Shown here: positions 1 through 38,132 of the stretch, one piece after another
Position numbering within the stretch: position 1 is the stretch's first letter
Layout of the letters: every line of letters starts with the position of its first letter
Virus genome (UHGV): UHGV-0106768
DNA length: 44,108 nt
Direction: 5' to 3' (one strand)
From: a virus
Position numbers and translations under genes: made by a program
Notes under the pieces: model-generated
Databases searched by the model: none
Seen by the model: the letters and a program-made list of their open reading frames with translations, nothing else
What the model was told of the DNA's origin: nothing

Positions 1-104
1 TACTGACAACTTCGCCATCAACCCACTTCGCCACGATAGATATACAGAACAAGAGACTGGAGCTATGTTGGAAATACCATAAGTTGCGAAACAGGAGGGC
101 GTAA

Positions 105-1097
105 ATGACTATATATCTTGAAAGAGGACCGTTTCTCACCATTCCCGATAAGCTGCATCCGGGACAGTACAGAGTGATCCGTAACCCCGACTGGCACGGA
201 GAACTGCCGGAGATCGTGTCCTTCACCGATTTTCTCAAATGGAACTACACACTGGAGTACGGTCAGTATATCCGAAAACTGCACTGCTATCGTCGGCTTC
301 CGCTGCCGTGGGGCGTTCCACAGGATGCCGAGATCGAAACTGTCATCATCGAGGAAGGCAGATATGACCGCATTGATCACGATTCCTTTGATATGTATGT
401 GATATGCGATGTCGTGTTCGAGATGAACGGCTGCCGGCAATGCCAGAAGTATATCGTGCACGGCTTTTACTGCTCTTACGGCGGTTCAGACTTTCTGTGT
501 GATGCGGAGCTGTACGATGGGCAGTTTATCCGGCTGAACAATCCTCTGGATGAGTTTCTGGTTCCCGTTCTCTCAAAGAAAGACTTTGAGAGCATTGCAC
601 AGGATATCCTCAACAGCTACTATTCATATAAGTCGAATTATCCTTGCCGCATCAATACTGCTTCGATTGCAAAGGCTATGGGGCTTGACATCAAGTATGC
701 CCGACTGTCAAAAAACGGAAATGTCAAGTCCAAGCTGATCCTGGACAAGCGGGATACGACCGTCTATGATAAGGAATGCAAAGCTGTCAAAATGCGGATC
801 GACAGTCCTACGATCCTTGTGGACGAGTCATTGGAGGAGGATGAAGCGCAGAACGCCATTATTCATGAGTGCGTTCACGCTTACCTTCACAACCTCTTCT
901 ATGAGCTGCAGAGCTACTATCGGAAAATGGTCGGCAGGAAGATGCCGGAGTTCAATGACTACTTCTATTCCAAGACGCAGCGTAGCTGCCTGAAATGGAT
1001 GGAAACACAGGCAAATGCCATCCCACGCTTTATTCAGATGCCGGAGGAGCAGGCATCCGATGTCATCCTGAACTTCTTCGAGCGACTCCCCGGATAG
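105..1097 (+). CDS. ImmA/IrrE-type (M78-like) zinc metallopeptidase domain protein; upstream part of a gene broken by an in-frame TAG
   Basis: AGGAGGG RBS just upstream of ATG 105. HExxH in AIIHECVHAYLH, followed by METQANAIPRFIQMPEE (E-x-x-AN...MP pattern of ImmA/IrrE). Ends at TAG 1095-1097, but the same frame stays open into 1134..2033. Confidence 0.7.
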   Translation: MTIYLERGPFLTIPDKLHPGQYRVIRNPDWHGELPEIVSFTDFLKWNYTLEYGQYIRKLHCYRRLPLPWGVPQDAEIETVIIEEGRYDRIDHDSFDMYVICDVVFEMNGCRQCQKYIVHGFYCSYGGSDFLCDAELYDGQFIRLNNPLDEFLVPVLSKKDFESIAQDILNSYYSYKSNYPCRINTASIAKAMGLDIKYARLSKNGNVKSKLILDKRDTTVYDKECKAVKMRIDSPTILVDESLEEDEAQNAIIHECVHAYLHNLFYELQSYYRKMVGRKMPEFNDYFYSKTQRSCLKWMETQANAIPRFIQMPEEQASDVILNFFERLPG

Positions 1098-1133
1098 CCT
1101 GACTGGGACGATTACAGAGAACTGATCGACCTT

Positions 1134-2033
1134 GTGAAATGGAAGTTCGGAGTATCCCGCAATGCTGCGAAGAAGCGTATCATTGAGCTTGGCTGGCCGG
1201 AGGTGCGCGGTGTGTATGTCTACAACACCACAGGATATGTTGAGGACTACGATGTCGAACTGAGATTCCCGGATGACTATACCTATACACTGTCATTCCG
1301 TCATATCTCTGATGTGTTCGCATCCTGCGAGACCTTTGCAGAGCTTGTAAGCTCCAAGAAGTTCATATATCTGGACGGTCATGTTGTCATCAACAGCGAC
1401 AAGTATATCCGTAAGGAACACGGCATCGCTATAGGCTTGACAGAGTATGCTAGACACCACATGGCAGAGTGCTGTCTGGATTTCAAGCGTATCTACGCAG
1501 AATTCGACTACAGCTATACCTATGGCGAGCTACACAAGGATGACCTGACCGAGATCACGGCCGAAAACCGTTCGTTCAGCGATGAACAGCGAAAGAAGAT
1601 CCGCATGGCAATGTATGAGATCACAGAAGAAAACGATAAACTGACCGTTCCTTCAGATGTCAACGAATTCGGCAAGGCGGTGCGTTTCCATATGGAGAGA
1701 TGCGGTCTCACCTCGGATCTGGTTGCAGACCGCAGCGGCATGGGTGTGAACACTGTCAATAAGATGCGCAGCGGTAAGAAAGTGAAGCTCGAAACGGTAC
1801 TGGCATTCTGTGTAGCTTTGGAGCTTGAGGAGTCGTTCCGCATTGACCTTATGCAGAAAGCAAAGGTCGATTATGATATGAACAATCCCGCCCACAGGTT
1901 GTATGTGACGATTTTTGAGCTTATGGAGAAGCCTAATGTGTTTCAGATCAACGAACTGCTGAAGGCAGAAGGCTTTACTCCGTGGACGAGAGACTGCGAG
2001 GAAAAGAAGCGGTACGCTAAGATAAGTATGTAA
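1134..2033 (+). CDS. Downstream part of the ImmA/IrrE-like gene, ending in an XRE-family helix-turn-helix
   Basis: Same frame as 105..1097, with no RBS or ATG of its own (the track start is GTG). FGVSRNAAKKRIIELGW is the usual C-terminal ImmA/IrrE motif. HTH-like segment GLTSDLVADRSGMGVNTVNKMRSGKK. Terminator follows. Confidence 0.65.
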   Translation: MKWKFGVSRNAAKKRIIELGWPEVRGVYVYNTTGYVEDYDVELRFPDDYTYTLSFRHISDVFASCETFAELVSSKKFIYLDGHVVINSDKYIRKEHGIAIGLTEYARHHMAECCLDFKRIYAEFDYSYTYGELHKDDLTEITAENRSFSDEQRKKIRMAMYEITEENDKLTVPSDVNEFGKAVRFHMERCGLTSDLVADRSGMGVNTVNKMRSGKKVKLETVLAFCVALELEESFRIDLMQKAKVDYDMNNPAHRLYVTIFELMEKPNVFQINELLKAEGFTPWTRDCEEKKRYAKISM

Positions 2034-2046
2034 TAACAGCATTTTC

Positions 2047-2073
2047 AGGAGGCTTTCGAGCCTCCTTTTTTTA
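2047..2073 (+). terminator. Rho-independent terminator
   Basis: AGGAGGCT-TTCG-AGCCTCCT stem-loop followed by a T7 tract, directly after the stop at 2033. Confidence 0.85.
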
Positions 2074-2095
2074 TGCCCTGAAATATTTTCATGAA

Positions 2096-2130
2096 GCCCC
2101 CAGAAAAAATGGGGGGCGATTTTTGTTTTT
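2096..2130 (+). terminator. Second rho-independent terminator
   Basis: GCCCCC / GGGGGC stem with an A-rich loop, followed by GATTTTTGTTTTT. Confidence 0.7.
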
Positions 2131-2256
2131 GAAACAGTTTAGAAATAGAATATTTATAAAATATCCATTTAATTTAGATGATGTGAACAAGTGCAGATTA
2201 TATATCAAAGTTGAGATAAGCATAGTGCATAAAAAACAGCCCCCATTTTTTATGTA

Positions 2257-2285
2257 TGTAAAAGAGAATTCGGATATGTTATGAT
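2257..2285 (+). promoter_or_regulatory. Candidate extended -10 promoter for the long leader
   Basis: TGTAAA - 17 nt - TATGAT, with TG one base upstream of the -10, inside an AT-rich tract. The -35 is weak. Confidence 0.3.
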
Positions 2286-2340
2286 ATAGACACAGTCAAG
2301 GACAGGCACCGCCGCCCATGACTGGAAACAACCTCTATAT

Positions 2341-2460
2341 GCCGGATGCATACGGCAGAGGACGGTCATATGAGAGCAGAACTGAACACCACAGGTATAT
2401 CCCGTGTTCGGAATCTGACATCATATGGCTACTCTGTGTCATGCATCCGGCTATTTTTCT
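2341..2460 (+). promoter_or_regulatory. About 111-nt extended hairpin plus T-tract (attenuator or terminator-like) in an untranslated leader
   Basis: Five nested helices (2341-51/2441-51, 2356-60/2432-36, 2364-72/2422-30, 2377-80/2414-17, 2384-89/2404-09), then CTATTTTTCT. Confidence 0.6.
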
Positions 2461-2520
2461 GCCGCGGCATTCGGAGCATGGCAAATCGATCATTACATTT
2501 GTTAGTCAGGGCGCGCACTG

Positions 2521-2644
2521 GCGGACAGATGCTCATAACGGAAAACAATGCCTGTGGTCTGTATAGACCGGAACAGGTACCGAAAGATTTTCCGTGTGGA
2601 CATTGTCTGCCTGCGTGCCTTTTCGCAGTAAGAGCATCTGCCGC
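2521..2644 (+). ncRNA. Three-way-junction structured leader element (unclassified cis-regulatory RNA candidate)
   Basis: Closing helix 2521-2534/2632-2644 (13 bp, one bulge). Inner helices 2538-45/2588-95, 2551-55/2573-77, 2556-60/2565-69 and 2611-15/2624-28. No credible ORF. Confidence 0.5.
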
Positions 2645-2650
2645 TGAGTG

Positions 2651-2671
2651 CGTTCCTTGCAGAAAGGAACG
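2651..2671 (+). promoter_or_regulatory. RBS-sequestering hairpin
   Basis: CGTTCCTT (2651-58) pairs perfectly with AAGGAACG (2664-71). The 3' arm is the only Shine-Dalgarno-like sequence before ATG 2675. Confidence 0.6.
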
Positions 2672-2674
2672 ATT

Positions 2675-3397
2675 ATGGAAAACGTGAATGTTCAGAATGC
2701 TGCCGCTATTACCGATCAGACCACACTCGGAGAACTGCTTGCAATGCTTGACCTCGCTGATAAGGCAGGCAAGATGCCGACACCGAGAGAACTGTTTGAG
2801 ACCGCCGGTGAGACGATTGCCGACATGAACGGCTGCACGCTCTTCAGCAACGGGTTCGCTGTCTACCAGAATATCACCGGACGTACTGTTGTCTGGCTGC
2901 CTTACTGTAAGAGCTTCACCTATTACTTCGGCAAGCTCCGTGATTCCGAGAAAGACACGCTGACAGAGACCTATGAGCTGCCGGATGGATTTCTGGAAAC
3001 ACAGCCGTGGGTGATCGCAGTAACACTGATCGGCGACCATCGTGTGGAGGCAAACAGCATGAACCGCACCGGCAGCCGCAAGGATACCACAGATTATGAC
3101 AGCGCCGATAACGGCGATAAAGACGGTGATGCAGAGGAGGCTTTGGCAGATCCGTATCGCAGGGCATTCAACTGGTATGACGGACGCATGGGCGAGAATC
3201 CGCAGGATGCCGTGGAGCGCAGAGAGACACGCGAGGAGATGCTTGCAGACATGACGGACAAGCAGCGTGAAGCCTTTATTATGTACTTCAGGGATGGTAT
3301 GACGCAGGAAGAGATTGCTTCATATATAGGGGTAAGCCGTGATTCCATAAATGACAGGCTTGAAGGTGCATTGAAAAAAGCAAAAAAATATTTTTGA
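2675..3397 (+). CDS. Sigma-70 region-4-like HTH regulator (sigma-factor-like protein of the kind seen in Clostridial ICEs and phages)
   Basis: The C-terminus DKQREAFIMYFRDGMTQEEIASYIGVSRDSINDRLEGALKKAKKYF matches the region-4 HTH pattern. The start is taken at ATG 2675 after AAGGAA. The track ORF starts at GTG 2648. Confidence 0.7.
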   Translation: MENVNVQNAAAITDQTTLGELLAMLDLADKAGKMPTPRELFETAGETIADMNGCTLFSNGFAVYQNITGRTVVWLPYCKSFTYYFGKLRDSEKDTLTETYELPDGFLETQPWVIAVTLIGDHRVEANSMNRTGSRKDTTDYDSADNGDKDGDAEEALADPYRRAFNWYDGRMGENPQDAVERRETREEMLADMTDKQREAFIMYFRDGMTQEEIASYIGVSRDSINDRLEGALKKAKKYF

Positions 3398-3441
3398 GGA
3401 TACCCACAAAAAGACCTCTCCCATGACAGTATATGAGAGGG
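3398..3441 (+). repeat. Copy 1 of a conserved 44-nt motif (GGATACCCACAAAA-N4-CCTCTCCCAYGACAGTATATGAGRGG)
   Basis: Nearly identical to 17237-17279. Contains hairpin CCTCTC/GAGAGG with a conserved 14-nt loop. Sits right after a gene end and a T-rich run. Confidence 0.7.
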
Positions 3442-3529
3442 CTTGAAAAGAAACCAAACCGCAAGCGGCTGCAAAGCCCTCGCAGCCGAACCATTATTAC
3501 ATCGGTCGAAAGACCTGAACAGAAAGGAA

Positions 3530-3895
3530 ATGCTTATGCCTATGGAAAACAGAGTCCCGAAAAACCGCTACAACGGCGGTGCCGCGCCCAATGCTGACAA
3601 ACAGGACAAGCCCGATGTGCTGAAGATGATCGAAACGGCAATGGACAAGCGTGCGGCTGGCATAGCACAGACGGTCACGGATATGTTCCGTTTCATGTCG
3701 ATGGCATCCGCCATGCTCCCGAATATGGAGATGGATGTCGGTGTGTTCCGTCTGAAGATCGACGATGACGGCGTGTTCTTTGAAATCCGCTACCCGTCCG
3801 GCTTCAGGCGCAAGCACAAGCCCGATGAGGACGGCGAAAAGCTGCCGGACAACTATGACGATAACGAGGAGGGACTGATCTATGACGGAGACTGA
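3530..3895 (+). CDS. Hypothetical protein
   Basis: Open frame with AAAGGA RBS before ATG 3530/3536. Its end overlaps the next gene. Confidence 0.55.
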   Translation: MLMPMENRVPKNRYNGGAAPNADKQDKPDVLKMIETAMDKRAAGIAQTVTDMFRFMSMASAMLPNMEMDVGVFRLKIDDDGVFFEIRYPSGFRRKHKPDEDGEKLPDNYDDNEEGLIYDGD

Positions 3896-4376
3896 GAAGA
3901 AGTTCACTGTGCCGGGACCGGTGCCTGTGGACGCAAAGAAGCTGATCGATGGGCTTGGTACGATCTTCGGCGGCGTGATCCAGATTCTGGCGGCAATGGA
4001 GCCGGGCATGGCAAAGGAACTGGCAGACATGGCGTTGGGCGGTGTGCCGAAGGAGCAGGTGCCGGAGACCATTAATCCGGACGATTTCGAGGAGATCATC
4101 GCTGCTGACGATCTGCCGTGGGATACAGAGCCGGAGCAGCCTGAACCGCCCAAGCCTGCGGAAAAATCCAAGCCGAAGAAGGCAGCAAAGAAGGCGGAGC
4201 CTGCATCGGAGCTGACCGCCGACGATCTCATCCGTGTGGTGACGCAGAAGATCAAGAAGGACCGCACCAACAAGGACAAAGTGCTGGCACTGCTGAAGTC
4301 CTACGGTGCGGCAAAGGTCAGCGACATTCCGCAGGAAAAGTATGAGGCGTTCCTCACGGATGTGTCGCAGCTCTGA
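3882..4376 (+). CDS. Hypothetical protein with a Pro/Lys-rich linker
   Basis: ATG 3882 preceded by GAGGAGGG. 164-aa ORF with protein-like composition. Confidence 0.6.
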   Translation: MTETEKKFTVPGPVPVDAKKLIDGLGTIFGGVIQILAAMEPGMAKELADMALGGVPKEQVPETINPDDFEEIIAADDLPWDTEPEQPEPPKPAEKSKPKKAAKKAEPASELTADDLIRVVTQKIKKDRTNKDKVLALLKSYGAAKVSDIPQEKYEAFLTDVSQL

Positions 4377-4390
4377 TCGGGGGTGGCATC

Positions 4391-5233
4391 ATGCCTGACG
4401 TTCACGCACTGCTCAGTGCGTCCAGTTCAAAACAGTGGCTACACTGTCCGCCGTCAGTCCGTTTGCAGGAGGGATTTCCGAATGAGAGTTCAGTCTACGC
4501 CGCAGAGGGCACGTTTGCCCACGAGATCTGCGAATACAAGGTACGTAAGTACCTGAAGGAGCGTGTGAAGCGTCCGCAGTCCGAGGAATATGACACCGAG
4601 GAAATCGAGCAGATCACAGATGTGTATGCGGAGTTCGTGATCTCCATCATTGAGCAGATGAAGGAGAACGGCTGTGAGCCGCTTGCTTTTGTTGAGGAGC
4701 GTGTGGACTACAGCCACATTGCCCCTTCCGGCTTTGGCACGGCAGATATGCTCATCATCGGTAAGGACGAGCAGGGACGCGGAATCCTTCATGTATGCGA
4801 TTTCAAGACGGGTGCAGGCGTGTTTGTGGATGCAGACCACAACAGCCAGATGATGCTCTATGCGATCGGAGCTTTAGCCGCCTACGGCTTTTTGTATGAT
4901 TTTGAGATCGTGCGTATGAGCATCATTCAGCCTCGTCTGGATAATATCAGCACATTCGAGTGTAGCAGAGCCGAGCTTGAGGAATGGGGCGAGAGCATCA
5001 AGCCCATTGCGAAACTTGCCTACGAGGGCAAAGGTGAACAGCACCCCGGCGACTGGTGTCGGTTCTGCCGTGCAAAGCCTGTTTGCAAAGCGTGTGCCAA
5101 TGAAGCACTGGCACTCTGCCGTGAGGATTTCCTTGACCTCGATGCCGGAGCATTCGATGATACTGCGGAGGAAAGCGATATGACCGCACCATACGAAGCG
5201 GATATACAGACTGCCGTATTCAAGCAGCCGTGA
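4391..5233 (+). CDS. DUF2800-type PD-(D/E)XK (Cas4-like) nuclease; upstream part, ends at an in-frame TGA
   Basis: N-terminus MPDVHALLSASSSKQWLHCPPS and the Cys cluster CRFCRAKPVCKAC are typical of DUF2800. The frame continues open after TGA 5231-5233. Confidence 0.75.
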   Translation: MPDVHALLSASSSKQWLHCPPSVRLQEGFPNESSVYAAEGTFAHEICEYKVRKYLKERVKRPQSEEYDTEEIEQITDVYAEFVISIIEQMKENGCEPLAFVEERVDYSHIAPSGFGTADMLIIGKDEQGRGILHVCDFKTGAGVFVDADHNSQMMLYAIGALAAYGFLYDFEIVRMSIIQPRLDNISTFECSRAELEEWGESIKPIAKLAYEGKGEQHPGDWCRFCRAKPVCKACANEALALCREDFLDLDAGAFDDTAEESDMTAPYEADIQTAVFKQP

Positions 5234-5362
5234 CTGATTCCTATCAGCGAACTTGCGGAGATCCTGCCGACTCTGAACCGCATCAGCTCTTGGATCGAGG
5301 CGGTATTCGCATTCGTATCCTCCGAGGCGATCAATCACGGTGTACCGATTCCCGGCTATAAG

Positions 5363-5638
5363 GTGGTCGAAGGGCGCAGCAAGCGTGTATTCACAGATAC
5401 AAAAGCTGTGGTCGATACCGCTGTTCAGAACGGGTACACCGACCTTTACAAGCAGACGCTCATCACGCTGACGGAATTTGAAAAGATGATGGGCAAGAAA
5501 AAGTTCAACGAGCTGCTCGGTGAGTATGTCGCCAAGCCACCCGGAAAGCTGGCACTTGTGCCGGAGAGCGATCCGAGAGAACCCGTTGATCTCACAACAC
5601 CCGGTCAGGAATTTGAAGTTCTCTCTGATGATGAGTGA
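5363..5638 (+). CDS. Downstream part of the DUF2800 nuclease gene
   Basis: Same frame as 4391..5233 and open from 5234. The sequence LIPISELAEILPTLNRISSWIEAV...GYKVVEGRSKRVFTD reads as the usual DUF2800 C-terminal region. No RBS of its own. Confidence 0.6.
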   Translation: MVEGRSKRVFTDTKAVVDTAVQNGYTDLYKQTLITLTEFEKMMGKKKFNELLGEYVAKPPGKLALVPESDPREPVDLTTPGQEFEVLSDDE

Positions 5639-5711
5639 GGATCATACAATAATGCCGCAATTATTCTGTTTGGTGAATACGCAAAATTGAATGAAATATA
5701 GGAGGTATACT

Positions 5712-6287
5712 ATGGCAAACACAACACCCGCGACTAAAGTGGTTATTCCCTGTCGCATTTCTTTTGCGAACATCTGGGAGCCAAAATCAATTAATGGCAG
5801 CGAAGAGAAGTATTCCGTTTCCCTACTGATCCCGAAGGATGACAAGGCAACGCTCGCCAAGATCAAGAAGGCAATTGAGGCGGCAAAGGAAGCGGCGAAG
5901 GAGAAGAAGTGGGGCGGCAAGATCCCGCCGAACCTCAAGCTGCCGATGCATGACGGCGACATCGACCGTCCTGATGACGAGAACTATGCCGGTCACTTCT
6001 TCTTCAATGCCACGAGCAAGGATGCACCGCAGATCGTTGACCGCCATGTGCAGCCGATTCTCGATCCGATGGAGTGCGGCAGCGGTGACTATTGCAATGT
6101 CAGCGTGAACTTCTACGGTTTTGCAGCATCCGGCAACAAGGGCATCGCAGCAGGACTCCAGAACATCCAGCTTGTCCGCCACGGTGAGCGTCTTGCCGGC
6201 AGGCCGACCGCCGCATCCGACTTCGTTGAGGTCGAGGGTGATGATGCGGATGATCTCGCAGACGATGATCTGGATTTCCTGAACTGA
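5712..6287 (+). CDS. DUF2815 family protein (phage SSB-like)
   Basis: GGAGG RBS before ATG 5712. The VVIPCRISFANIWEPKS N-terminus and acidic C-terminal tail (DDADDLADDDLDFLN) are typical of the DUF2815 partner of DUF2800 and PolA modules. Confidence 0.7.
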   Translation: MANTTPATKVVIPCRISFANIWEPKSINGSEEKYSVSLLIPKDDKATLAKIKKAIEAAKEAAKEKKWGGKIPPNLKLPMHDGDIDRPDDENYAGHFFFNATSKDAPQIVDRHVQPILDPMECGSGDYCNVSVNFYGFAASGNKGIAAGLQNIQLVRHGERLAGRPTAASDFVEVEGDDADDLADDDLDFLN

Positions 6288-6327
6288 CGCATAAGGGAGG
6301 CTTGCCTCCCTGTACATACACAAACAG

Positions 6328-9213
6328 GTGGTGATTTTATTGAGCAGACGTGTACTTTCTATCGACCTTGAGACCTACAGCGATGTTGACCTTCCGAACT
6401 GCGGTGTGTACCGCTATGTTGAGGGGGATTTTCATATCCTGCTGTTCGCATATGCATTCGATGATGAAGAAACAAAGTGTATCGACATGGCCTGCGGTGA
6501 ACAGCTTCCCGCAGAGGTTGTGGATGCCATACACAATGAAAATATCATCAAATCTGCGTGGAATGCGCAGTTTGAGCGCATCTGTCTGTCAAAATATCTC
6601 GGCATCAGGCTTTCTCCGGACTCGTGGCAATGCACGATGGTATGGGCGGCATCGCTGTCCCTGCCGCTGAAGCTGGCAACGGCAGCACAGGCTTTGAAAA
6701 CTGCACAGCAGAAAGACAGTGTCGGTGAACGGCTGATCCGCTACTTTTCGATTCCGTGTAAGCCTACCAAATCTAACGGCGGTCGCACACGCAATCTGCC
6801 GGAACACGCTCCGGAGGACTGGGCGCTGTTCAAAAGCTACTGTATTCAGGATGTGGAAACGGAACGGGATATCCGCCGAAGACTTGAAAAGTTTCCGCTG
6901 ATGCCGCAGGAATGGGATTTTTATCACATGGATCAGCGGATCAATGACCGCGGCATCCTGATCGACAGAGAGCTTGTGCAGCAGGCAATTATCTGTAATA
7001 TGGCAATGTCTGAGGAGATGACCAAACGCGCCTATGCACTGACGGGACTTGAAAATCCCAATTCTGTATCTCAGCTGAAGTCATGGCTGGAAGATCGCGG
7101 CATCGAGGTGGATTCCCTCGGCAAAAAGAATGTCGCTTCTCTGATCACAGACCTTGACAAGCACAGTGCGGACGGTGAAGCTCTGGATATGATGAAGCTG
7201 CGGTTGCAGATGGCAAAGTCCTCTGTGAAAAAGTATCAGGCGGCAGAGAGATACATCTGTCAGGACGGCAGGGCGCACGGACTGTTTCAGTTTTCCGGAG
7301 CTCAGCGAACACAGCGCTGGTGTCTTACCGGCGATCATGAAATACTGACAGATAAAGGCTGGCTCAGGCTTGATAATTGGCAGGGCGGTAAGATTGCTTG
7401 TTGGAATCCTAATCAGGAAATGGTCTCGTTCCAGAAAGCGAACGTATTGTGCTTTGAATATGACGGTCCTATCTACCGCTATGAGGACAAACGGATCGAT
7501 CAGATCAGCACGCCGGATCACAAAATGCGTGTAAAGAAACGGTATAACGGCGAGTGGACGGATGACACTGTTGGCAATATGGAAAAGTATCGTCCTTCTA
7601 TTCCGTTTACCGGACGCAGACAAACGATGCCCGGCTTGGAGCACGCAGAACTGAGGGTACTGGTGATGACGCAGGCTGACGGCAGCTATAAAGAAGATGG
7701 AATGCTCTGCTTCCATTTCAAGAAGAAAAGGAAAATAGAACGGTGCAAACATCTGCTCAGACAGGCGGGCATTTATTTCACAGTGAATGAATGCAGGACA
7801 GATGGAACAACGCAGATCAAGATTCCTTCCCGTGAGCAGCCGATGTATCTAAGAATGTTTCATAACAAGACATTTGGAATGTGGCTTCTCGATGAAAGCC
7901 CGGATGTTTTCTTTGATGAGCTTCGGTATTGGGACGGATCGCAAAGCGCCAAAAACAGTATCCAATATACCACAACGAACAAAGTGAATGCCGATATTGT
8001 TCAGGCTTTTGCTCATACAAGTGGTCGCTGTGCAAAAATGAAACCGGTCATCCGGGATAAAGAACACCCGAATTGGAGCGATGCATACTATCTCGATATA
8101 TGGCTCACTCCGAAAAACTGTCATGAAATCAGAGTGAAGCCGACTATCTCGCAATTCAGCGGCAAAATATACTGTGCTGAAACCCCAACCGGATACTTCC
8201 TTGTAAGACGTAATGGTAAAGTGTGGGTAACAGGAAACAGCGGGCGCGGCATTCAATTACAGAACCTGCCGCAGAACCACATCTCTACCCTCGATGAAGC
8301 AAGAGAACTTGTCAAAATGGGCTGCTTTGACATGATCGAAGCACTGTACGGCAATACGCCGGATATCCTGTCACAGCTTATCCGCACGATGCTCATTCCG
8401 AAGGACGGCTGTGAATTTATCGTGGCAGACTTCTCCGCCATTGAAGCGAGAGTACTTGCGTGGCTTGCCGGAGAACAGTGGCGGCTCGATGCCTTCAAGC
8501 GTGGCGAGGATATTTACTGTGCATCCGCATCGCAAATGTTCGGTGTTCCGGTCGTGAAGCACGGCATCAACGGTGAACTGCGGCAGAAAGGCAAGGTCGC
8601 AGAATTGGCCTGCGGTTACGGCGGCGGTGCCGGTGCGCTGATCTCAATGGGCGCACTGGATATGGGACTGAAAGAGGACGAACTTCCCGACATCATTTCA
8701 AGCTGGCGCGACGCAAACCCGGAGATCGTGAAATTCTGGTATGCTGTGGAAAAAGCCGCGATTGAAACAGTCAAGGATCACAATGACAGATCGGTCGGCC
8801 GGATCGGATTTCAGTTTTCAGCAAATACACTGTGGATCGTTCTTCCGTCCGGACGCAGGCTTGCCTACATCAAACCGAGATTACAGCCGAACCGCTTCGG
8901 GCGTATGGCACTGACATTTGAGGGGCTTGGTGCAAACAACAAGTGGGTGCGCGGCGAAACCTATTCCGGCAAGCTGACAGAGAACATCACACAGGCAACT
9001 GCCCGTGATCTCCTTGCAGAAGCAATGCGCCGTATAGAACTTGCAGGGCTTGGAATCGTCGGGCATGTGCATGATGAGGTCATTCTCGAAGTGCCGAAAG
9101 GACAATACACGGTCGATGATGTATGCAGCATCATGAATCAGAATCCGAAATGGGCGGAGGACTTACCGTTGTCAAGTGCAGGATATACGGGTGCATGGTA
9201 CTACAAAGATTAA
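6328..9213 (+). CDS. Family A DNA polymerase with 3'-5' exonuclease domain, interrupted by an intein
   Basis: Exo I SIDLETYSD, RT(Q)RW...SGRGIQLQNLPQ, motif A IVADFSAIEARVLAWL, motif C HVHDEV. The true start may be TTG 6340. Confidence 0.9.
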   Translation: MVILLSRRVLSIDLETYSDVDLPNCGVYRYVEGDFHILLFAYAFDDEETKCIDMACGEQLPAEVVDAIHNENIIKSAWNAQFERICLSKYLGIRLSPDSWQCTMVWAASLSLPLKLATAAQALKTAQQKDSVGERLIRYFSIPCKPTKSNGGRTRNLPEHAPEDWALFKSYCIQDVETERDIRRRLEKFPLMPQEWDFYHMDQRINDRGILIDRELVQQAIICNMAMSEEMTKRAYALTGLENPNSVSQLKSWLEDRGIEVDSLGKKNVASLITDLDKHSADGEALDMMKLRLQMAKSSVKKYQAAERYICQDGRAHGLFQFSGAQRTQRWCLTGDHEILTDKGWLRLDNWQGGKIACWNPNQEMVSFQKANVLCFEYDGPIYRYEDKRIDQISTPDHKMRVKKRYNGEWTDDTVGNMEKYRPSIPFTGRRQTMPGLEHAELRVLVMTQADGSYKEDGMLCFHFKKKRKIERCKHLLRQAGIYFTVNECRTDGTTQIKIPSREQPMYLRMFHNKTFGMWLLDESPDVFFDELRYWDGSQSAKNSIQYTTTNKVNADIVQAFAHTSGRCAKMKPVIRDKEHPNWSDAYYLDIWLTPKNCHEIRVKPTISQFSGKIYCAETPTGYFLVRRNGKVWVTGNSGRGIQLQNLPQNHISTLDEARELVKMGCFDMIEALYGNTPDILSQLIRTMLIPKDGCEFIVADFSAIEARVLAWLAGEQWRLDAFKRGEDIYCASASQMFGVPVVKHGINGELRQKGKVAELACGYGGGAGALISMGALDMGLKEDELPDIISSWRDANPEIVKFWYAVEKAAIETVKDHNDRSVGRIGFQFSANTLWIVLPSGRRLAYIKPRLQPNRFGRMALTFEGLGANNKWVRGETYSGKLTENITQATARDLLAEAMRRIELAGLGIVGHVHDEVILEVPKGQYTVDDVCSIMNQNPKWAEDLPLSSAGYTGAWYYKD
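7321..8238 (+). mobile_element. Class-1-type intein with LAGLIDADG homing-endonuclease domain inside the DNA polymerase
   Basis: Starts CLTGDHEILT and ends VWVTGN followed by Ser. Block B is TPDH. LAGLIDADG-like motifs LRVLVMTQADGS and FFDELRYWDGS. Removing it restores GAQRTQRW-SGRGIQLQNLP. Confidence 0.85.
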
Positions 9214-9247
9214 GTGTATAAACAATATTTCAGAGGAGGATATCTTT

Positions 9248-10297
9248 ATGAAACAAGGCAGATCATTACCGGAAGTGCTGACTGAGCTTCAGCGTCAGAA
9301 TGCGGCAAAGCAGGACTACATCGGTGCAGCGGAGGCTTTCCGTCTGGACGAGGACGGCAGCACATTCAATATTGGCACCGACCACAGCTTCGGCACCACG
9401 CAGCTTTTTCATCGTCAGGTGGCATCGGCGCTTGGCATTCCGGCGAAATACTACGATATGATGCAGAAACAGAAGCCCGATCTTCTGGCAGACAATGTGA
9501 ATGCATGGTTCAGTGACAAGGGCAGCAGCTACATGGTGCGTACCCTTGATTACGGCAGCGGACAGGTTGCGAGAGCCTTTCTGTCTGACCGTTACCGCCG
9601 TATCGATAACCTTGAAATTGCCTCGGCTGTTCTCCCGATTTTCGCCGGACAGGAAGGCATGGAGGTCATGAGCTGCGAGGTCACAGAGAATAAGCTGTAT
9701 CTGAAGATCGTCAATCACCGTCTGGAAATGGCGTGTGTCGGTGACCGTGTGCAGGCAGGTGTCATCATCTCCAATTCGGAGGTTGGACTCGGTGCTGTGT
9801 CTGTTCAGCCGCTTGTCTATACACTTGCCTGCACCAACGGCATGGTGGTCAACAGTATGGGCGAACGCCGTACCCATGTGGGCAGAGCTGCGAAGGCGCT
9901 GGAAGACAGCTTCAATATCTACACAGATGAAACCCTCGAAGCCGAAGATAAGGCATTCATGCTGAAGCTCCGTGATACCACAATGGCAGCAATTGAAGAG
10001 GCTCGTTTCGCACAGATCATCGGTGTGTTGGAGCAGAGCCACGGCGCAAAGATCACAGGACGTGTGCAGGATGTCATCGAACTGACCGGCAAGGCGTATG
10101 ACCTGAATCAGCCGGAACAGGACAGCATTCTGAACTATCTCATCAAGGGCGGCGATCTTTCCCTCTATGGTCTGAGCAATGCCATCACACGCGCTTCGCA
10201 GGATGTAGATTCCTACGACAGAGCCACTGCGTTAGAGGGCATCGGCTGGCAGGTGGCGACCATGCCTGCAAATCAGTGGAAGGAGATCAACGCATGA
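9248..10297 (+). CDS. DUF932 domain protein
   Basis: GAGGAGGA RBS. The IISNSEVGLGAVSVQPLVYTLACTNGMV core resembles the DUF932 signature. Confidence 0.65.
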   Translation: MKQGRSLPEVLTELQRQNAAKQDYIGAAEAFRLDEDGSTFNIGTDHSFGTTQLFHRQVASALGIPAKYYDMMQKQKPDLLADNVNAWFSDKGSSYMVRTLDYGSGQVARAFLSDRYRRIDNLEIASAVLPIFAGQEGMEVMSCEVTENKLYLKIVNHRLEMACVGDRVQAGVIISNSEVGLGAVSVQPLVYTLACTNGMVVNSMGERRTHVGRAAKALEDSFNIYTDETLEAEDKAFMLKLRDTTMAAIEEARFAQIIGVLEQSHGAKITGRVQDVIELTGKAYDLNQPEQDSILNYLIKGGDLSLYGLSNAITRASQDVDSYDRATALEGIGWQVATMPANQWKEINA

Positions 10298-10527
10298 GCA
10301 GAACCTGGAAAGACAGAAAAGGATATAAAACACGCAGAAAACGACACGGATATCCTGTGCCGGAAATCTGCAATTACACACGCGGCAGCTATGAAGATTA
10401 TGACCACAGCGATGAGGAACTGTATGTCGATGACCAGTGCTGCGAGAACTGCCGCTTTTGCGGATGTTGCCGTCATACACCGTTCCCGTCGGGCTGGTGC
10501 GAATACTGGAAGGACGGCACACATTGA
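10294..10527 (+). CDS. Small Cys-rich hypothetical protein
   Basis: ATGA start/stop overlap with the upstream gene. CCENCRFCGCCRH cluster. Confidence 0.5.
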   Translation: MSRTWKDRKGYKTRRKRHGYPVPEICNYTRGSYEDYDHSDEELYVDDQCCENCRFCGCCRHTPFPSGWCEYWKDGTH

Positions 10528-10964
10528 GAGAATATGTTGTCGAAAACGAGTTTATCAAGGCGGTAAAAGCGGCAGGCGGTGTGGCATACAAGCTGACATC
10601 GCAGACCGCAAACGGACTGCCGGACAGACTCGTTCTGTTCCCGGCGGCAAAGACGATTTTCGTGGAGCTGAAAGCACCGGGGAAAATGATGCGACCGTTG
10701 CAGCGTAAAAGACGGTATCAGCTTATGAAACTCGGCTTTCCGGTGCTGTGCATTGACAGGATGCCGCAGATCAAGCCGTTCATATCAGCAGCATTGTCAT
10801 GGACACCCGGTGAGCCGTTCCCGGAAGGCATCGGTGCGAAGATACCCGATCTGGAAAGGGCAACGCTGCCGACGGATATGGATAACTTCGGGGAAACGCT
10901 TGAACCCATCGATCCAGACAATCTGATAGAGTTTTATGAAATAGAGGACGGTGATGATGCATGA
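10524..10964 (+). CDS. VRR-NUC domain nuclease
   Basis: EFIKAVKAAGGVAYKL...GLPDRLVLFP...IFVELKAPGK matches the VRR-NUC (PD-(D/E)XK) pattern. The start is uncertain (TTG 10524 overlaps the upstream stop). Confidence 0.7.
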   Translation: MREYVVENEFIKAVKAAGGVAYKLTSQTANGLPDRLVLFPAAKTIFVELKAPGKMMRPLQRKRRYQLMKLGFPVLCIDRMPQIKPFISAALSWTPGEPFPEGIGAKIPDLERATLPTDMDNFGETLEPIDPDNLIEFYEIEDGDDA

Positions 10965-11458
10965 TTAACCCTAAACGCAGAGCTGTGAGAAAAAGCTGCT
11001 CATACTGCGGAACTGTCTTTACCTATGTCGGAAGTCATGGTACAAGAAATAAGCATTTTTTCTGTTCTCATGAATGCTATATTGCCTTTAAGACAAAGAA
11101 AGCAGAAGTGAAATGCGATTGGTGCGGCAAATCAATGCTGAAAAAACGCTCTGAAATATGGAGAACGGATCACAATTTCTGCTGCCCCGAATGCTGTTTA
11201 CTGTATAGGCAAAAGCAAGGCGAAACTTCATGGAATCATCGTGTGAATGGAATAACCGTACACAGGGGCATTTTGGAGAAGAAGCTCGGACGAGAACTGC
11301 GTGCGGATGAAGAAGTACACCATATCGATGGTAACCATTTCAATAATGATCCGGACAATCTCATCGCCCTTTCCAAATCGGAACACGCCAAAATTCATTC
11401 TTCTTGGAAAGCGAGGGACGAGTATGGAAAATACGTTAAAACGCAGTCAGATTCATGA
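10961..11458 (+). CDS. HNH endonuclease with N-terminal Cys4 zinc-finger-like motifs (possible free-standing homing endonuclease)
   Basis: EEVHHIDGNHFNNDPDNLIALSKSEHAKIH. CSYCG...CSHEC and CDWCG...CCPEC pairs. Confidence 0.8.
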   Translation: MINPKRRAVRKSCSYCGTVFTYVGSHGTRNKHFFCSHECYIAFKTKKAEVKCDWCGKSMLKKRSEIWRTDHNFCCPECCLLYRQKQGETSWNHRVNGITVHRGILEKKLGRELRADEEVHHIDGNHFNNDPDNLIALSKSEHAKIHSSWKARDEYGKYVKTQSDS

Positions 11459-12806: not shown

Positions 12807-12902
12807 CAATATACAGTCTGTATGATCCACCCCTTATTGACGACAGGAAGACGGCAAAGCGGCGACAATTCGGTTACGCCGCAAACCACGGAGGTGAAAA
12901 CT

Positions 12903-13388
12903 ATGGCTCGTAAGAACAAACGCCTAAAAACAGAATACCACAGAGGGCTCGGCTTTGATCCGAGAAAATATATTACGGCACCGGTGCAGCACCACACCAT
13001 CGCTCACAAGCCGCAGCGCGGTGACATCTGGTTTGCGGATCTTGGCTGTCATCCGGATTCCAGCGTGCAGAGCGGCATCCGTCCGGTTATCATTCTCTCG
13101 AATGATATGGGCAATGCACACGCCGACACGGTCAATATCATTCCCATGACGCGGCATCTGAAAAAGCCGGAGCTGCCGTGCCATACGCATCTGTTCCCCG
13201 ACAGTATTTCCGATCTTCATCAGCATCTATATCCGTCCATGATCCTGGCGGAGCAGCTCACGACTGTCAGCAAGCATGCGCTTCGCAGCTATGCCGGACA
13301 TATCTCGGACGCCGATGCGATGAACCGTATTGAAACCGCTGTCATTGCACAGCTTTTCATTGAAAGGAGACATTCCGAATGCCTGTAA
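12903..13388 (+). CDS. PemK/MazF-fold toxin-like protein
   Basis: GGAGGTG RBS. PQRGDIWFADLG...SGIRPVIILSNDMGN...VNIIPMT matches the PemK/MazF core. No antitoxin-like ORF is adjacent. Confidence 0.65.
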   Translation: MARKNKRLKTEYHRGLGFDPRKYITAPVQHHTIAHKPQRGDIWFADLGCHPDSSVQSGIRPVIILSNDMGNAHADTVNIIPMTRHLKKPELPCHTHLFPDSISDLHQHLYPSMILAEQLTTVSKHALRSYAGHISDADAMNRIETAVIAQLFIERRHSECL

Positions 13389-23935: not shown

Positions 23936-23965
23936 GGCTTCAAGCACTACCAGTTTTTATGCTTT

Positions 23966-24352
23966 ATGAAGAACTACAGTCCGCAGGTGCTGAAAGCAAA
24001 CATGAGGATCGTTGGTGCTACCGAATATGCGCTGGTGCTGTATCGGGGCAAGCTGCCGAAGTTCCGCAATACCGATGCGGACGGCAAGCGGCACATGATC
24101 TTCGACCATTTCGACTGGGTGCGGGACGGCAAAGATATCCCGAAGATACATCCAAGCCAGAAGCCGGTGAATCTGCTGAAGCGCCTGATTGGGATATTTA
24201 CCGATGAGGGCGATGTGGTCATCGACCCCTGTGCGGGTTCAGGAAGTACACTGAGAGCCGCAAGAGAAATGGGACGCAACAGCTACGGCTTTGAGGTCAG
24301 CAGGGATTTCTATACCAAAGCCCGTGAGCAGATGCTCGGAGGTGCGGAATGA
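23966..24352 (+). CDS. N6/N4 DNA methyltransferase, downstream part (motif I)
   Basis: HPSQKPVNLLKRLIGIFTDEGDVVIDPCAGSGSTLRAA. Same frame as 23579..23935 and open from 23936 (GFKHYQFLCFMKNY...). Confidence 0.65.
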   Translation: MKNYSPQVLKANMRIVGATEYALVLYRGKLPKFRNTDADGKRHMIFDHFDWVRDGKDIPKIHPSQKPVNLLKRLIGIFTDEGDVVIDPCAGSGSTLRAAREMGRNSYGFEVSRDFYTKAREQMLGGAE

Positions 24353-34992: not shown

Positions 34993-35466
34993 ATGGCTCA
35001 GAGAGGCAGAAAACCAACGCCTACGGCGATCAAAGAGCTGGAAGGCAATCCGGGCAAGCGTCCGCTGAATGATGCAGAGCCGAAGCCGGAACGCAAGGCA
35101 CCGCCCTGTCCGAAGTGGCTGGAGCCCGAAGCAAAAAAGGAATGGCGCAGGCTGTCAAAGCAACTGGAGCAGATTGGTGTGCTGACCGAGGTCGATCAGG
35201 CGGCATTCGCATCCTACTGTCAGGCATACGCACGATGGAAAGAAGCCGAGGAATTCATGACCCAGCACGGCACGATCGTAAAAACAAAATCAGGTTACTG
35301 GCAGCAGGTTCCGCAGGTATCCATTGCGCAAACTTATCTGAAGATCATGAACAAGATCGCAGAGCAGTTTGGCCTGACCCCGGCGGCAAGAAGCCGTATC
35401 ACTGCCGGCGCAGATATGAAAAACGCTGCCGTTGACGATATGGATGAACTTCTCGGAGGTGGCTGA
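34993..35466 (+). CDS. terS: Terminase small subunit, P27 family
   Basis: MAQRGRKPTPTAIKELEGNPGKRPLN N-terminus typical of the P27 family. GGAAGGAG RBS. Confidence 0.85.
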   Translation: MAQRGRKPTPTAIKELEGNPGKRPLNDAEPKPERKAPPCPKWLEPEAKKEWRRLSKQLEQIGVLTEVDQAAFASYCQAYARWKEAEEFMTQHGTIVKTKSGYWQQVPQVSIAQTYLKIMNKIAEQFGLTPAARSRITAGADMKNAAVDDMDELLGGG

Positions 35467-38132
35467 TGGCGAGAACGGCAAAGGCAAGAGAAAGACCTGC
35501 CAACTATCCGAAACTGAAGGATTATAAACCGACACGCTTTATGCTGCCGGAATCGCACTACGATGCGGCAAAGGCTGACCGAGCTGTGCGGTTCATCGAG
35601 AATCTCTGCCATACCAAAGGACGCTGGGCAGGCAAACCGTTCTGGCTGCTTCCGTGGCAGGAACAGATCATCCGGGATATTTTCGGCATCGTCAAAGAGG
35701 ACGATATGCGGCAATTTCGTACCGCCTATGTCGAAATTCCAAAGAAAAATGGGAAGCAGCTTGCACTGGATACACCGATCCCGACTCCGCAGGGATTCAC
35801 CAATATGGGAGATCTGAAGGTCGGAGATACAGTATTCGATGAAAACGGCATTCCGTGCCATGTGGTTGCGAAAAGTCCTGTGGATGATACAGAGCAAGCC
35901 TACAAGCTGACCTTCAAGGACGGCACCTCGATCATTGCCGGGGAAAGGCATCTGTGGAACTGTCAGTATATTTACGGCAAACGCAAGGATGTTCTCTGGA
36001 CGACCGGCGAGATCTATCGCAGGACAACGGAATACAGACAGCGTTTTTCCGACAGACCACAGACAAAGCGGGATTCCCTTATCCGAATTCCGGTGTGCGG
36101 TGTCCTTCAGACAGAAGCGGCAGTTTTACCGATTGATCCGTATCTGTACGGCTACTGGCTCGGAAACGGTAATGTGACCATGCCGGAGATCACTGTTCGG
36201 ACGGAGGATGTCGAGGATATCATCTCGAATATTCCGTATAAGGTACACAACCGTTATCCGCAGAAATGCGGCGGCAGTGAGATCATAAAGTACAATGAAC
36301 TGAAAGCAGTACTACTTGACAGCTTCCGTGAAAAGAAGATCCGACCAGAATATCTGAGGGCATCCGCAGAGCAGAGATGGGCATTACTGCAAGGGCTTAT
36401 GGATTCGGACGGCTGTATCGGTGAACGCAAAGGGCAAAGTGTGTATGTCACAACGCTGCGAGAGCTGGCGCTTTCCGTCAGAGAACTGCTGTGGTCACTC
36501 GGCATCAAAAATGCAGTGAAATGTGAGCCTTCTACACGGCATGGGTGGCCGACCGGCGAGATTTTGTATATCGTCCGTTTTACAACCTTTGATGACCAAC
36601 CGACATCAAGGCTTAAACGCAAAAATACACGCACACAGGCGCGGTTAAAGGAAACTCGCTCCTGTTTTCATTATCTGCTGGATATTCAACCTGTAAATCA
36701 TCCTGTAAAAATGCAGTGCATTCAGGTGGACAGTCCGAGTCACCAATATCTCGCAGGACCGTCATTTGTGCCTACGCACAACAGTGAGCTTGCAGCGGCA
36801 ATTGCACTGTATCTGCTCTACGCCGACAACGAGCCGTCTGCTGAGGTCTACGGCGCTGCTGCTGATCGTGGGCAGGCATCCATTGTATTCGATGTCGCCA
36901 AAAGAATGGTTGAGATGACACCGGCACTTCTGAAACGCTCAAAAATCATGGCGGCGACAAAGCGTCTGGTGAATTACAGTAATGTTGGCTTTTATCAGGT
37001 GCTTTCAGCGGAAGTCGGTACAAAGCACGGATTGAATGTATCCGGTCTGGTTTTGGATGAACTTCATGCCCAACCGAACCGCAGCCTTGTGGATGTTCTC
37101 ACAAAGGGTTCCGGTGATGCCCGTACTCAGCCGCTGTACTTCCTGATCACAACCGCCGGAACGGATCGCAACAGCATCTGCTACGAGTATCACACGAAAG
37201 CAAAAGATATTCTGGACGGCAGGCGCATTGATCCGTCCTTCTATCCTGTGATCTACGGCTTGAACGATGATGACGACTGGAACGCAGAGGAGTCATGGTA
37301 TAAGGCAAATCCCTCGCTCGGATACACTATCGCCATCGACCGAGTCCGCGATGCTCACCGGGAAGCCCTTACAAATCCCGCTGAAGAAAATGTATTCCGT
37401 CAGCTGAGGCTTGACCAGTGGGTAGGCAGTGCGGTGGCATGGATTCCGGAGCATATCTACGACAGGGGCAATCTTCCGATCGACCTCGAAAAGCTCCGGG
37501 GACGGGAGTGCTACGCAGGTCTTGACCTATCCAGCACATCGGATATCACGGCATTTGTGCTGGTGTTCCCTCCGCTGCATGACGGCGAGAAATACATCGT
37601 TGTCCCGCACTTCTGGCTGCCGAGAGAAACGCTCGATTTACGAGTACGGCGAGACCATGTTCCCTACGATGTATGGGAGCGCATGGGATTATTTCATATC
37701 ACCGAGGGCAATGTGGTCGATTACAATTTCGTGCGGAAAACGATCAACGAGCTGCACACGATGTACAACATCAAGGAAATTGCTGCCGACCGCTGGAATG
37801 CCACACAGCTTATCACAGACCTTGAGGGAGACGGATTTACCGTTGTTCCGATGGGCATGGGCTTCAAGGATATGTCCCCGCCGATGAAGGAACTGTACAA
37901 GCTCATACTCGAAGGGCAGTTTATCCACGGCGGCAACCCTGTACTCCGCTGGATGGCAGGAAATGTGGTCGCTGAAATTGATGCAGCGGAGAACATCAAA
38001 CCAAGTAAAAAGAAAAGTACAGAAAAGATTGACGGTATCGTGGCATGGATCATGGCACTTGACCGCTGCATCCGCCACGAAATGCAGGGCAGTGTCTATG
38101 ACGAACCCGGCCACGATCTTGTGGTCATCTGA
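35466..38132 (+). CDS. terL: Terminase large subunit interrupted by an intein in the Walker A motif
   Basis: PKKNGK / SELAAAIALYLL flank the insert. Walker B LVLDELH. C-terminal nuclease region. ATGA overlap with terS. Confidence 0.9.
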   Translation: MARTAKARERPANYPKLKDYKPTRFMLPESHYDAAKADRAVRFIENLCHTKGRWAGKPFWLLPWQEQIIRDIFGIVKEDDMRQFRTAYVEIPKKNGKQLALDTPIPTPQGFTNMGDLKVGDTVFDENGIPCHVVAKSPVDDTEQAYKLTFKDGTSIIAGERHLWNCQYIYGKRKDVLWTTGEIYRRTTEYRQRFSDRPQTKRDSLIRIPVCGVLQTEAAVLPIDPYLYGYWLGNGNVTMPEITVRTEDVEDIISNIPYKVHNRYPQKCGGSEIIKYNELKAVLLDSFREKKIRPEYLRASAEQRWALLQGLMDSDGCIGERKGQSVYVTTLRELALSVRELLWSLGIKNAVKCEPSTRHGWPTGEILYIVRFTTFDDQPTSRLKRKNTRTQARLKETRSCFHYLLDIQPVNHPVKMQCIQVDSPSHQYLAGPSFVPTHNSELAAAIALYLLYADNEPSAEVYGAAADRGQASIVFDVAKRMVEMTPALLKRSKIMAATKRLVNYSNVGFYQVLSAEVGTKHGLNVSGLVLDELHAQPNRSLVDVLTKGSGDARTQPLYFLITTAGTDRNSICYEYHTKAKDILDGRRIDPSFYPVIYGLNDDDDWNAEESWYKANPSLGYTIAIDRVRDAHREALTNPAEENVFRQLRLDQWVGSAVAWIPEHIYDRGNLPIDLEKLRGRECYAGLDLSSTSDITAFVLVFPPLHDGEKYIVVPHFWLPRETLDLRVRRDHVPYDVWERMGLFHITEGNVVDYNFVRKTINELHTMYNIKEIAADRWNATQLITDLEGDGFTVVPMGMGFKDMSPPMKELYKLILEGQFIHGGNPVLRWMAGNVVAEIDAAENIKPSKKKSTEKIDGIVAWIMALDRCIRHEMQGSVYDEPGHDLVVI
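35757..36782 (+). mobile_element. Class-3-like intein (Gln1, Trp-Cys-Thr triad) with LAGLIDADG homing endonuclease in terL
   Basis: Starts QLALDTPIPTPQGF and ends FVPTHN followed by Ser. Block B is GERHLW (W codon 35955-57). Block F is MQCIQVD (C codon 36717-19). Block G is PTHN. LAGLIDADG-like YGYWLGNGN and LLQGLMDSDG. Confidence 0.8.

Follow-up and report, generated by a model that had tools for sequence, protein, structure and literature searches.

The 44,108-nucleotide virus genome UHGV-0106768 (the window, meaning the whole stretch of DNA that was analyzed) comes from a temperate tailed phage of Ruminococcus. Near its left end, an open reading frame (ORF) for a predicted ImmA/IrrE-type peptidase joined to a helix-turn-helix (HTH) domain is interrupted by a single TAG at positions 1095-1097. 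A preliminary description of the sequence had pointed to this codon and had listed recent inactivation, assembly or consensus error, and suppressor- or readthrough-dependent expression as candidate explanations. We asked whether the TAG is real and, if it is, whether the gene is lost, decoded through the stop, or still working in two parts. The analysis favors, with a probability of about 0.75, an ordinary nonsense mutation that produced a loss-of-function allele of a switch gene and was followed by two more nonsense stops in one clone.

Results

The interrupted frame and its homologues

Translation of positions 105-2036 gave 330 codons, the TAG, a further 311 codons and then TAA TAA, with no other stop. 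The TAG is the sole interruption of a 642-codon frame (105..2033), and ORFs 105..1097 and 1134..2033 do lie in one frame, as the preliminary description had it. The residues it had quoted around the stop were all found: HECVH at residues 254-258, METQANAIPRFIQMPEE before the TAG and LVKWKFGVSRNAAKKRIIELGW after it. On the + strand, 11 junctions consist of a single stop flanked on both sides by open stretches of 90 codons or more, and most of them are ordinary gene boundaries. Same-frame adjacency by itself is not beyond chance, and it is sequence homology that establishes all three interruptions discussed below.

With the joined protein as query, 104 proteins were retrieved, among them dozens of 637-660 amino acids (aa) that covered 99-100% of the query and were up to 97% identical to it; for homologues of 642 aa the coverage was 100% and the identity as high as 97% (E = 0). 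The alignment to homologues that had been proposed as a check showed a sense codon throughout at the stop column, mostly Glu (61 of 83 sequences), with Asp, Gln, Lys and similar residues in the rest. Near-full-length copies from Ruminococcus genomes and metagenome-assembled genomes, which include the cultured R. flavefaciens 007c and MA2007, crossed the position as one unbroken match in seven cases of seven. At the DNA level, codon 331 was GAG in all six aligned alleles without the TAG, and over 195 nucleotides (nt) around the stop the TAG allele differed from an intact allele (L014) by one change, G>T at 1095. No new start or ribosome-binding site was created by any change near the stop, relative to the intact alleles compared. 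The homologue search found no pair of adjacent genes breaking at codon 331 except the TAG allele itself, so the naturally two-gene homologues that would have spoken against an interruption did not appear; the other short forms were contig ends, or independent frameshifts, deletions and rearrangements at other positions. These alignments establish that a genuine point mutation turned GAG into TAG at 1095-1097 (Glu331 to stop), in what is normally a single 642-codon ORF.

Megablast of window positions 1-2400 against GenBank phages gave no match. Exact-pattern scans across the stop in IMG/VR and a metagenome collection gave four matches, all GAG, at 90.9-98% identity; we rejected them as a gauge of TAG frequency, none being the intact twin of the TAG allele.

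The TAG allele across samples

Gene calls for the exact 330-aa product exist on at least 15 contigs in JGI, ENA and Logan assemblies of different human-gut samples, and 37 further collection blocks index its E6D variant. In each of these loci that was fetched, the codon read was TAG. With the same codon present in dozens of independent assemblies, the assembly or consensus error listed among the candidate explanations was rejected.

Three haplotypes carry the allele. Haplotype A comprises the window, an 85-kb JGI scaffold and ERR1190833; haplotype B has a patch of 17 differences at 1241-1433, and haplotype C has the same patch together with E6D. Because this patch (12 synonymous and 5 nonsynonymous changes) is common to B and C, it appears to be a recombination tract and not new mutation. 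Haplotype A adjoins a 290-aa HTH-S24 repressor and B and C adjoin one of 310 aa, the two being 50% identical, and left-arm cargo genes vary among haplotype C contigs. Since the repressors are so dissimilar and the cargo differs, the TAG allele has been through several recombination events. There were no synonymous differences among TAG alleles in the 993-nt N-terminal part, and the variation among them lies wholly inside recombination patches shared between haplotypes. As far as these sequences tell, the TAG allele is geographically widespread yet young in point-mutation terms. Selection on the downstream half after the stop was also considered and set aside, as all variation lies in the patches and the TAG alleles hold no informative new mutations.

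Two observations concern the structure of these loci. The patches at 1241-1433 (17 differences) and 2803-2908 (19 differences) are the sole differences between otherwise identical copies from different samples and look like gene-conversion or recombination tracts. Window base 1 is the exact start of three independent assemblies, and the ends of many contigs fall near 3285; from the upstream regions of L001, L017 and L014, these breaks look like mosaic recombination junctions that break assembly graphs.

Two further in-frame stops

The preliminary description had reported the same pattern, one nonsense codon with no change of frame, in a DUF2800 nuclease (TGA 5231-33) and an N6/N4 methylase (TAA 23933-35), and homology bore this out (Table I). 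The DUF2800 protein is 415 aa long in relatives. In the 774-nt methylase gene, C>A at 23935 is the sole difference from six independent intact copies, and the stop column holds Tyr in 87 of 121 aligned sequences. Exact look-up of the repaired proteins in the collection found the Tyr-repaired 257-aa methylase, indexed in 50 blocks; the Glu-repaired ImmA-HTH and the Gly-repaired DUF2800 proteins were both absent, so that only the methylase has a known intact twin.

The TGA- and TAA-truncated products were found on 5 contigs each, all of haplotype A, the window's clone. Both stops recur in the JGI scaffold and in the ENA ERZ1303852 and ERR1190833 assemblies. Over the aligned positions 1-15233 and 13579-44108, the window and the JGI scaffold match at 100% identity apart from the 19-difference patch at 2803-2908. 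In the copies compared, the TAG lesion is widespread, and the TGA and TAA occur in one near-identical clone only; prevalence alone suggests the order, TAG first and then TGA and TAA.

Isolated single-nucleotide polymorphisms unique to the window between 19.7 and 30 kb comprised 14 synonymous, 6 nonsynonymous and 1 nonsense change. Because these changes are mostly synonymous, the stops are recent, and purifying selection acted on the lineage until a short time ago. Each of the three stops arose by a G:C>T:A transversion, a class that makes up 38% of the possible stop-creating changes (P for three of three, 0.013-0.054). The other window-specific differences are mostly transitions, and we do not claim a mutator or oxidative signature. 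A window-specific G>T at 25202, changing Gly (GGG) to Trp (TGG) in a 763-aa C5 DNA methylase, is also G:C>T:A. TAG 33021-33023, after which the same frame stays open over a long distance, was examined as a fourth interruption and rejected, as relatives with an intact methylase share the same pair of 59-aa and 117-aa genes.

Place of the stop in the protein

Profile and model comparisons predict four parts in the gene product: an N-terminal domain is followed by a zinc peptidase domain of the ImmA/IrrE type, then by a middle domain and, at the C-terminus, by an XRE-type HTH. In intact homologues the Peptidase_M78 family (PF06114; IrrE N-terminal-like) spans residues 226-359. It scored 22.8, 27.3 and 27.9 bits in P0001, P0004 and P0103 against a cut-off of 22, with no match in P0039; the N-terminal fragment of the window alone scored 16.2 bits, under the cut-off. 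The HExxH zinc-binding motif corresponds to HECVH 254-258, in which H254, E255 and H258 are invariant across 34 diverse homologues. In the E-x-x-A-N motif, which has the downstream Glu ligand, E300 and Q302 are invariant in the 34 homologues, and A303 and N304 are kept in at least 90%.

In an AlphaFold (AF2) model (mean predicted local distance difference test score, 76), the loop 327-333, which joins helix 314-326 to helix 334-348, contains residue 331, and the helices that follow the stop (334-361) hold the FGVS...RIIELGW segment. Foldseek gave two significant matches in the PDB, both IrrE: 3dti (E 4.5e-6) and 3dte (E 2.5e-5), over 203 aligned columns. The claim that the stop falls within the ImmA/IrrE domain is borne out by the PF06114 span, the modeled helices and the IrrE fold matches. 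The C-terminal HTH scored just under the Pfam cut-offs (HTH_31, 22.3 versus 27; HTH_26, 21 versus 22), matched the HipB and HigA profiles at E ~0.002, and in Foldseek resembled C.BclI, C.AhdI and HipB with TM-scores (target) of 0.7-0.8. A pairing with a separate, co-transcribed ImmR-type HTH repressor was not found; the HTH is fused in cis, and the adjacent repressor is a divergent HTH and Peptidase_S24 protein.

Other lesions in the same gene

Several further copies of the ImmA/IrrE-HTH gene are damaged elsewhere. Three contigs have a +1 T insertion near gene nt 588 (L045), and two have a 5-bp deletion at gene nt 400-404 (L052). On six contigs the gene breaks off after about residue 358, where PrgI/TrbL conjugation genes adjoin it (L041-L044), and in a deleted remnant residues 1-449 are fused in frame to the C-terminus of DUF2800 (L051). 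The allele with the 5-bp deletion is near-identical to the TAG allele and has the distinctive codon 133-138 stretch of the TAG lineage (D133, D138), yet it has GAG at codon 331. Because the frameshift, deletion, truncation and fusion are independent, plain loss of the ImmA/IrrE-HTH gene appears to have been tolerated repeatedly. The TAG allele is among the most often seen exact alleles of its clade (at least 96% identity).

Gene context and features of the window

Divergent from the C1-type (HTH and S24) repressor gene and first in the rightward direction, the ImmA/IrrE-HTH gene forms its own unit, which ends at a terminator-like hairpin (2047-2076). The left arm of the element holds defense cargo and the C1-type repressor, with integrase and type I restriction-modification genes seen in relatives and in the JGI scaffold. 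Rightward of the switch come a sigma factor and then a DUF2800-Enc34-PolA-SNF2-primase replication module; the other modules comprise S-adenosylmethionine synthetase, NrdD/G and three methylases, and terminase, portal, protease and capsid genes. The coordinates of the features are collected in Table I.

Table I. Positions of the interrupted genes and associated features in the window (motif positions are residue numbers)
Feature	Position	Strand	Description or basis
ImmA/IrrE-HTH gene, N-terminal 330 codons	105..1094	+	Predicted beta-rich N-terminal domain and catalytic part of the M78 peptidase domain
Motifs of the N-terminal part	HECVH 254-258; E300-x-Q-A-N	+	Homologue alignment
In-frame TAG, codon 331	1095..1097	+	From GAG (Glu) by G>T at 1095
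C-terminal 311 codons and stop	1098..2033	+	Predicted last M78 helices (FGVS...RIIELGW), middle alpha/beta domain and XRE-type HTH (residues ~518-585); fully open
GGAGG 1199-1203, then in-frame GTG 1212	1199..1214	+	Within the coding sequence; same in the intact allele
Terminator-like hairpin and T-run	2047..2076	+	Closes the single-gene unit; no gene is called in the next ~600 nt, up to the sigma-factor gene
DUF2800 / PD-(D/E)XK nuclease, N-terminal 280 codons	4391..5230	+	Pfam E 1.8e-93, profile 1-249 of 368
In-frame TGA	5231..5233	+	From GGA (Gly) by G>T
DUF2800, C-terminal 134 codons	5234..5638	+	Pfam E 8.8e-35, profile positions 256-368
N6/N4 DNA methylase, N-terminal 118 codons	23579..23932	+	Homology, intact 257-aa twin
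In-frame TAA	23933..23935	+	From TAC (Tyr) by C>A at 23935
N6/N4 methylase, C-terminal part	23936..24352	+	PF01555 (N6_N4_Mtase) E 2.4e-20

The C1-type repressor gene (HTH and Peptidase_S24; L001 8697-9569) and the ImmA/IrrE-HTH gene (window 105-2033) stand side by side and divergent; in pneumococcal prophages, C1 and ImmAR systems are reported to be mutually exclusive (PMC12637031). Downstream, the ~600 nt without a called gene (window 2040-2650) contain terminator-like hairpins at 2047-2076 and 2097-2125. A PemK/MazF-like toxin gene lies at 12903-13388, between the SNF2 helicase and primase genes.

The 961-, 888-, 809-, 774/765- and 715-aa genes, described earlier as intact, are indeed all open, but the 961- and 888-aa genes owe their length to intein-like insertions. 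The PolA ORF (6328..9213, 961 aa) has an in-frame insertion of 307 codons at 7321-8241 that is absent from 665-aa relatives. It starts with CLTGDHEI, ends with VWVTGN followed by Ser, is placed at RTQRW/AGRGIQ of the intact extein and looks like an intein; a Pfam search of the insertion gave no match. In the TerL ORF (35466..38132, 888 aa), an insertion at about 35757-36785 (residues ~98-439) splits the Walker-A region (NGK / ... THN / SELAAA) and contains a LAGLIDADG_3 domain at residues 303-370. This insertion begins with Gln, not Cys or Ser, has a Cys in a block-F-like MQCIQV and ends in T-H-N, features that we take to resemble those of class 3 inteins. The initial Gln was considered as a fourth lesion and rejected as evidence in view of these class-3-like features (Cys in block F, terminal T-H-N).

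The JGI scaffold continues past the window end. A missing tape-measure gene, considered from the JGI gene calls in the tail region, was rejected, as a 1359-codon ORF is present in a scaffold with N gaps. A reverse-strand, leucine-rich-repeat-like, dockerin-containing gene lies between the tape-measure and Dit genes (L053 16585-18521), and an IS110-family transposase follows directly after Dit, where a tail gene is expected (L053 19820-20642); given the N gaps, the latter is either an insertion of the element or a scaffolding artifact.

Discussion

Of the explanations offered at the outset, recent inactivation is the one supported by the homologues, by the single change and by its reproducibility. 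Translation would end at codon 331, and the resulting 330-aa fragment would keep HExxH and E-x-x-A-N but lack the last peptidase helices, the middle domain and the DNA-binding HTH; the full-length regulator would be lost or cut to trace readthrough. Given the gene's place in the lysis-lysogeny switch, the likeliest effect of its loss is weaker prophage activation or none, as the analogy with ImmA/IrrE proteases also suggests. In a pneumococcal prophage, disruption of immA abrogated excision and lowered the response to mitomycin (PMC12637031). Weakened activation would cost a resident prophage little and may favor the host, so that the allele could persist and spread with lysogens and by recombination. 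The TGA and TAA would be later single-base changes in a clone of the TAG lineage and would fit the early decay of a prophage that is not selected for lytic growth.

Several points weigh against this reading. That loss weakens induction is argued from gene position and the ImmA/IrrE analogy, and Streptococcus phage homologues of the 642-aa family are annotated "hypothetical." The neighboring repressor has an S24 autoprotease domain of its own, so that induction here may do without an ImmA-like protease. Being common and present in several backgrounds, the TAG allele also looks as a functional or selected allele would. The downstream 311 codons have no further lesion in any copy; at such low divergence this is uninformative, yet it is no sign of decay. 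As for the order of events, the haplotype B and C contigs end near 3285, before the DUF2800 and methylase genes; as for decoding, the tRNA search covered only the window and the fetched pieces of prophage and relatives.

The chance that the stops are errors is negligible. Such an origin has its prior plausibility, and oxidative artifacts of library preparation are known to include G>T and C>A changes, but the identical TAG across many independent runs, assemblers and projects refutes it for that codon, and TGA and TAA recur in the three assemblies named above. It is also very improbable that the stops are decoded, whether by a suppressor tRNA, by reassignment of TAG or TGA as in gut phages, or as selenocysteine or pyrrolysine. 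TAG is rare as a terminator, closing 1 of the 50 genuine gene ends (the three internal stops excluded), and the TGA in place of a Gly codon superficially recalls genetic code 25. Recoding would, however, be expected to leave many in-frame copies of one codon, and here three different stops occur once each, all other long genes are open under the standard code, TGA and TAA terminate 32 and 17 genes, and the sole TAG-terminated gene (33021-33023) ends alike in relatives. ARAGORN searches of the window, and of the pieces fetched from the JGI prophage scaffold and from relatives, yielded no tRNA, and no Rfam family matched. With Glu, Gly and Tyr codons in homologues and unchanged flanks, no element like the selenocysteine or pyrrolysine insertion sequences (SECIS, PYLIS) could have evolved. 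Because the stops are single, homologues have sense codons and the flanks are unchanged, we exclude reassignment, selenocysteine and pyrrolysine, and the earlier suggestion of suppressor- or readthrough-dependent expression is left unsupported, although natural readthrough at a low level may occur.

A split gene that still functions is a stronger contender, although we consider it unlikely. Either both halves would be made, the C-terminal one by restart at GTG 1134 or at the GGAGG-GTG 1212 site, or weak UAG-C termination would leave a tuned trace of full-length protein, giving an attenuated switch. The frequency and spread of the allele over three haplotypes and two heteroimmune repressor contexts would suit this, as would a downstream frame open in every copy and a stop in a variable surface loop, where distant homologues have insertions or deletions. 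Both TAG and TGA are followed by C, and in E. coli work a stop codon followed by C is a relatively leaky context. The statement that the downstream part lacks a ribosome-binding site stands for GTG 1134 and fails for the in-frame GTG 1212: GGAGG 1199-1203, the sole Shine-Dalgarno-like restart site 3' of the TAG, lies 8 nt before it, and one public gene call on an identical contig is 1212..2033, starting there. This site did not evolve as a rescue of the split gene, because it is unchanged in the intact allele; indeed no change accompanies the stop, all flanks are the same, and nothing has evolved for fission. The break also lies inside the M78 fold, ahead of its last helices, an open downstream frame carries no weight at so low a divergence, and the same gene carries frameshifts and deletions that are impossible to read through, which argues that plain loss is tolerated.

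Returning to the nonsense mutation as a loss of function, it is doubtful that knock-out of the ImmA/IrrE-HTH gene is positively selected and more than tolerated. The frequency of the TAG allele, its movement between heteroimmune repressor backgrounds and the recurrent lesions would fit a host-favored "grounding" of the prophage through a lost activation factor beside a C1-type repressor; alternatively, they would fit an attenuated switch allele kept by leaky expression. If disruption proves enriched over neighboring genes, the enrichment would point to the ImmA/IrrE-HTH fusion as an activation factor in many temperate phages of Ruminococcus and Streptococcus, and the alleles (GAG, TAG, +1 and 5-bp deletion) would form a natural series for studying prophage locking in abundant gut bacteria. 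The locus offers a clean case, from a gut prophage, of a nonsense polymorphism that is real. An in-frame stop in a metagenomic phage contig is not necessarily a sign of error or recoding, and annotators should join such ORFs and flag the gene as disrupted.

Comparison with known systems

The protein shares HExxH and E-x-x-A-N with the anti-repressor metalloproteases of COG2856/Peptidase_M78, namely ImmA of ICEBs1, phi105 and streptococcal prophages and IrrE-PprI of Deinococcus. A helical FGVS...R...LG segment follows here too, PF06114 is above its cut-off in intact homologues, and the best fold matches are IrrE. Like immA, whose knock-out reduces prophage activation (PMC12637031), the gene lies in the lysogeny-control region. 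The protein differs in being much larger (642 aa), with an extra N-terminal domain of ~225 aa, and in having its XRE-type HTH fused at the C-terminus, whereas the HTH that goes with ImmA is encoded by a separate upstream gene, immR. The neighboring repressor here is of the C1-type HTH-S24 kind and is transcribed divergently. ORF13 of Streptococcus phage phi-SsUD.1 and proteins of S. suis and S. gallolyticus prophages are distant homologues (23-30% identity over ~75% of the protein). ORF13 is likewise a single ORF, of ~620 aa, from phages that have the replication module with DUF2800, Enc34 and PolA in common with the present one. Its annotation goes no further than hypothetical protein or XRE regulator, and no interruption is reported there.

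Stop-codon-recoded gut phages reassign TAG or TGA and have suppressor tRNAs. The phage described here resembles them in being a gut phage with in-frame stops in otherwise conserved genes, but its three stops occur once each, no suppressor tRNA was found in the sequences searched, all three codons terminate genes, and relatives have sense codons. Nonsense and frameshift pseudogenes occur in defective or cryptic prophages, such as the cryptic prophages of E. coli K-12. Shared with these are single-base inactivating lesions in regulatory, replication and modification genes, with the rest of the genome open, and a nesting of the lesions that suggests stepwise decay. Unlike in cryptic prophages, the decay is very early, with three point lesions in 44 kb and the structural genes open, and the TAG allele is unusually common and recombined into heteroimmune backgrounds. 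The interruption is a new instance of a known phenomenon in an uncharacterized ImmA/IrrE-HTH family, and only the high frequency of the allele and the recurrence of lesions in one gene set it apart.

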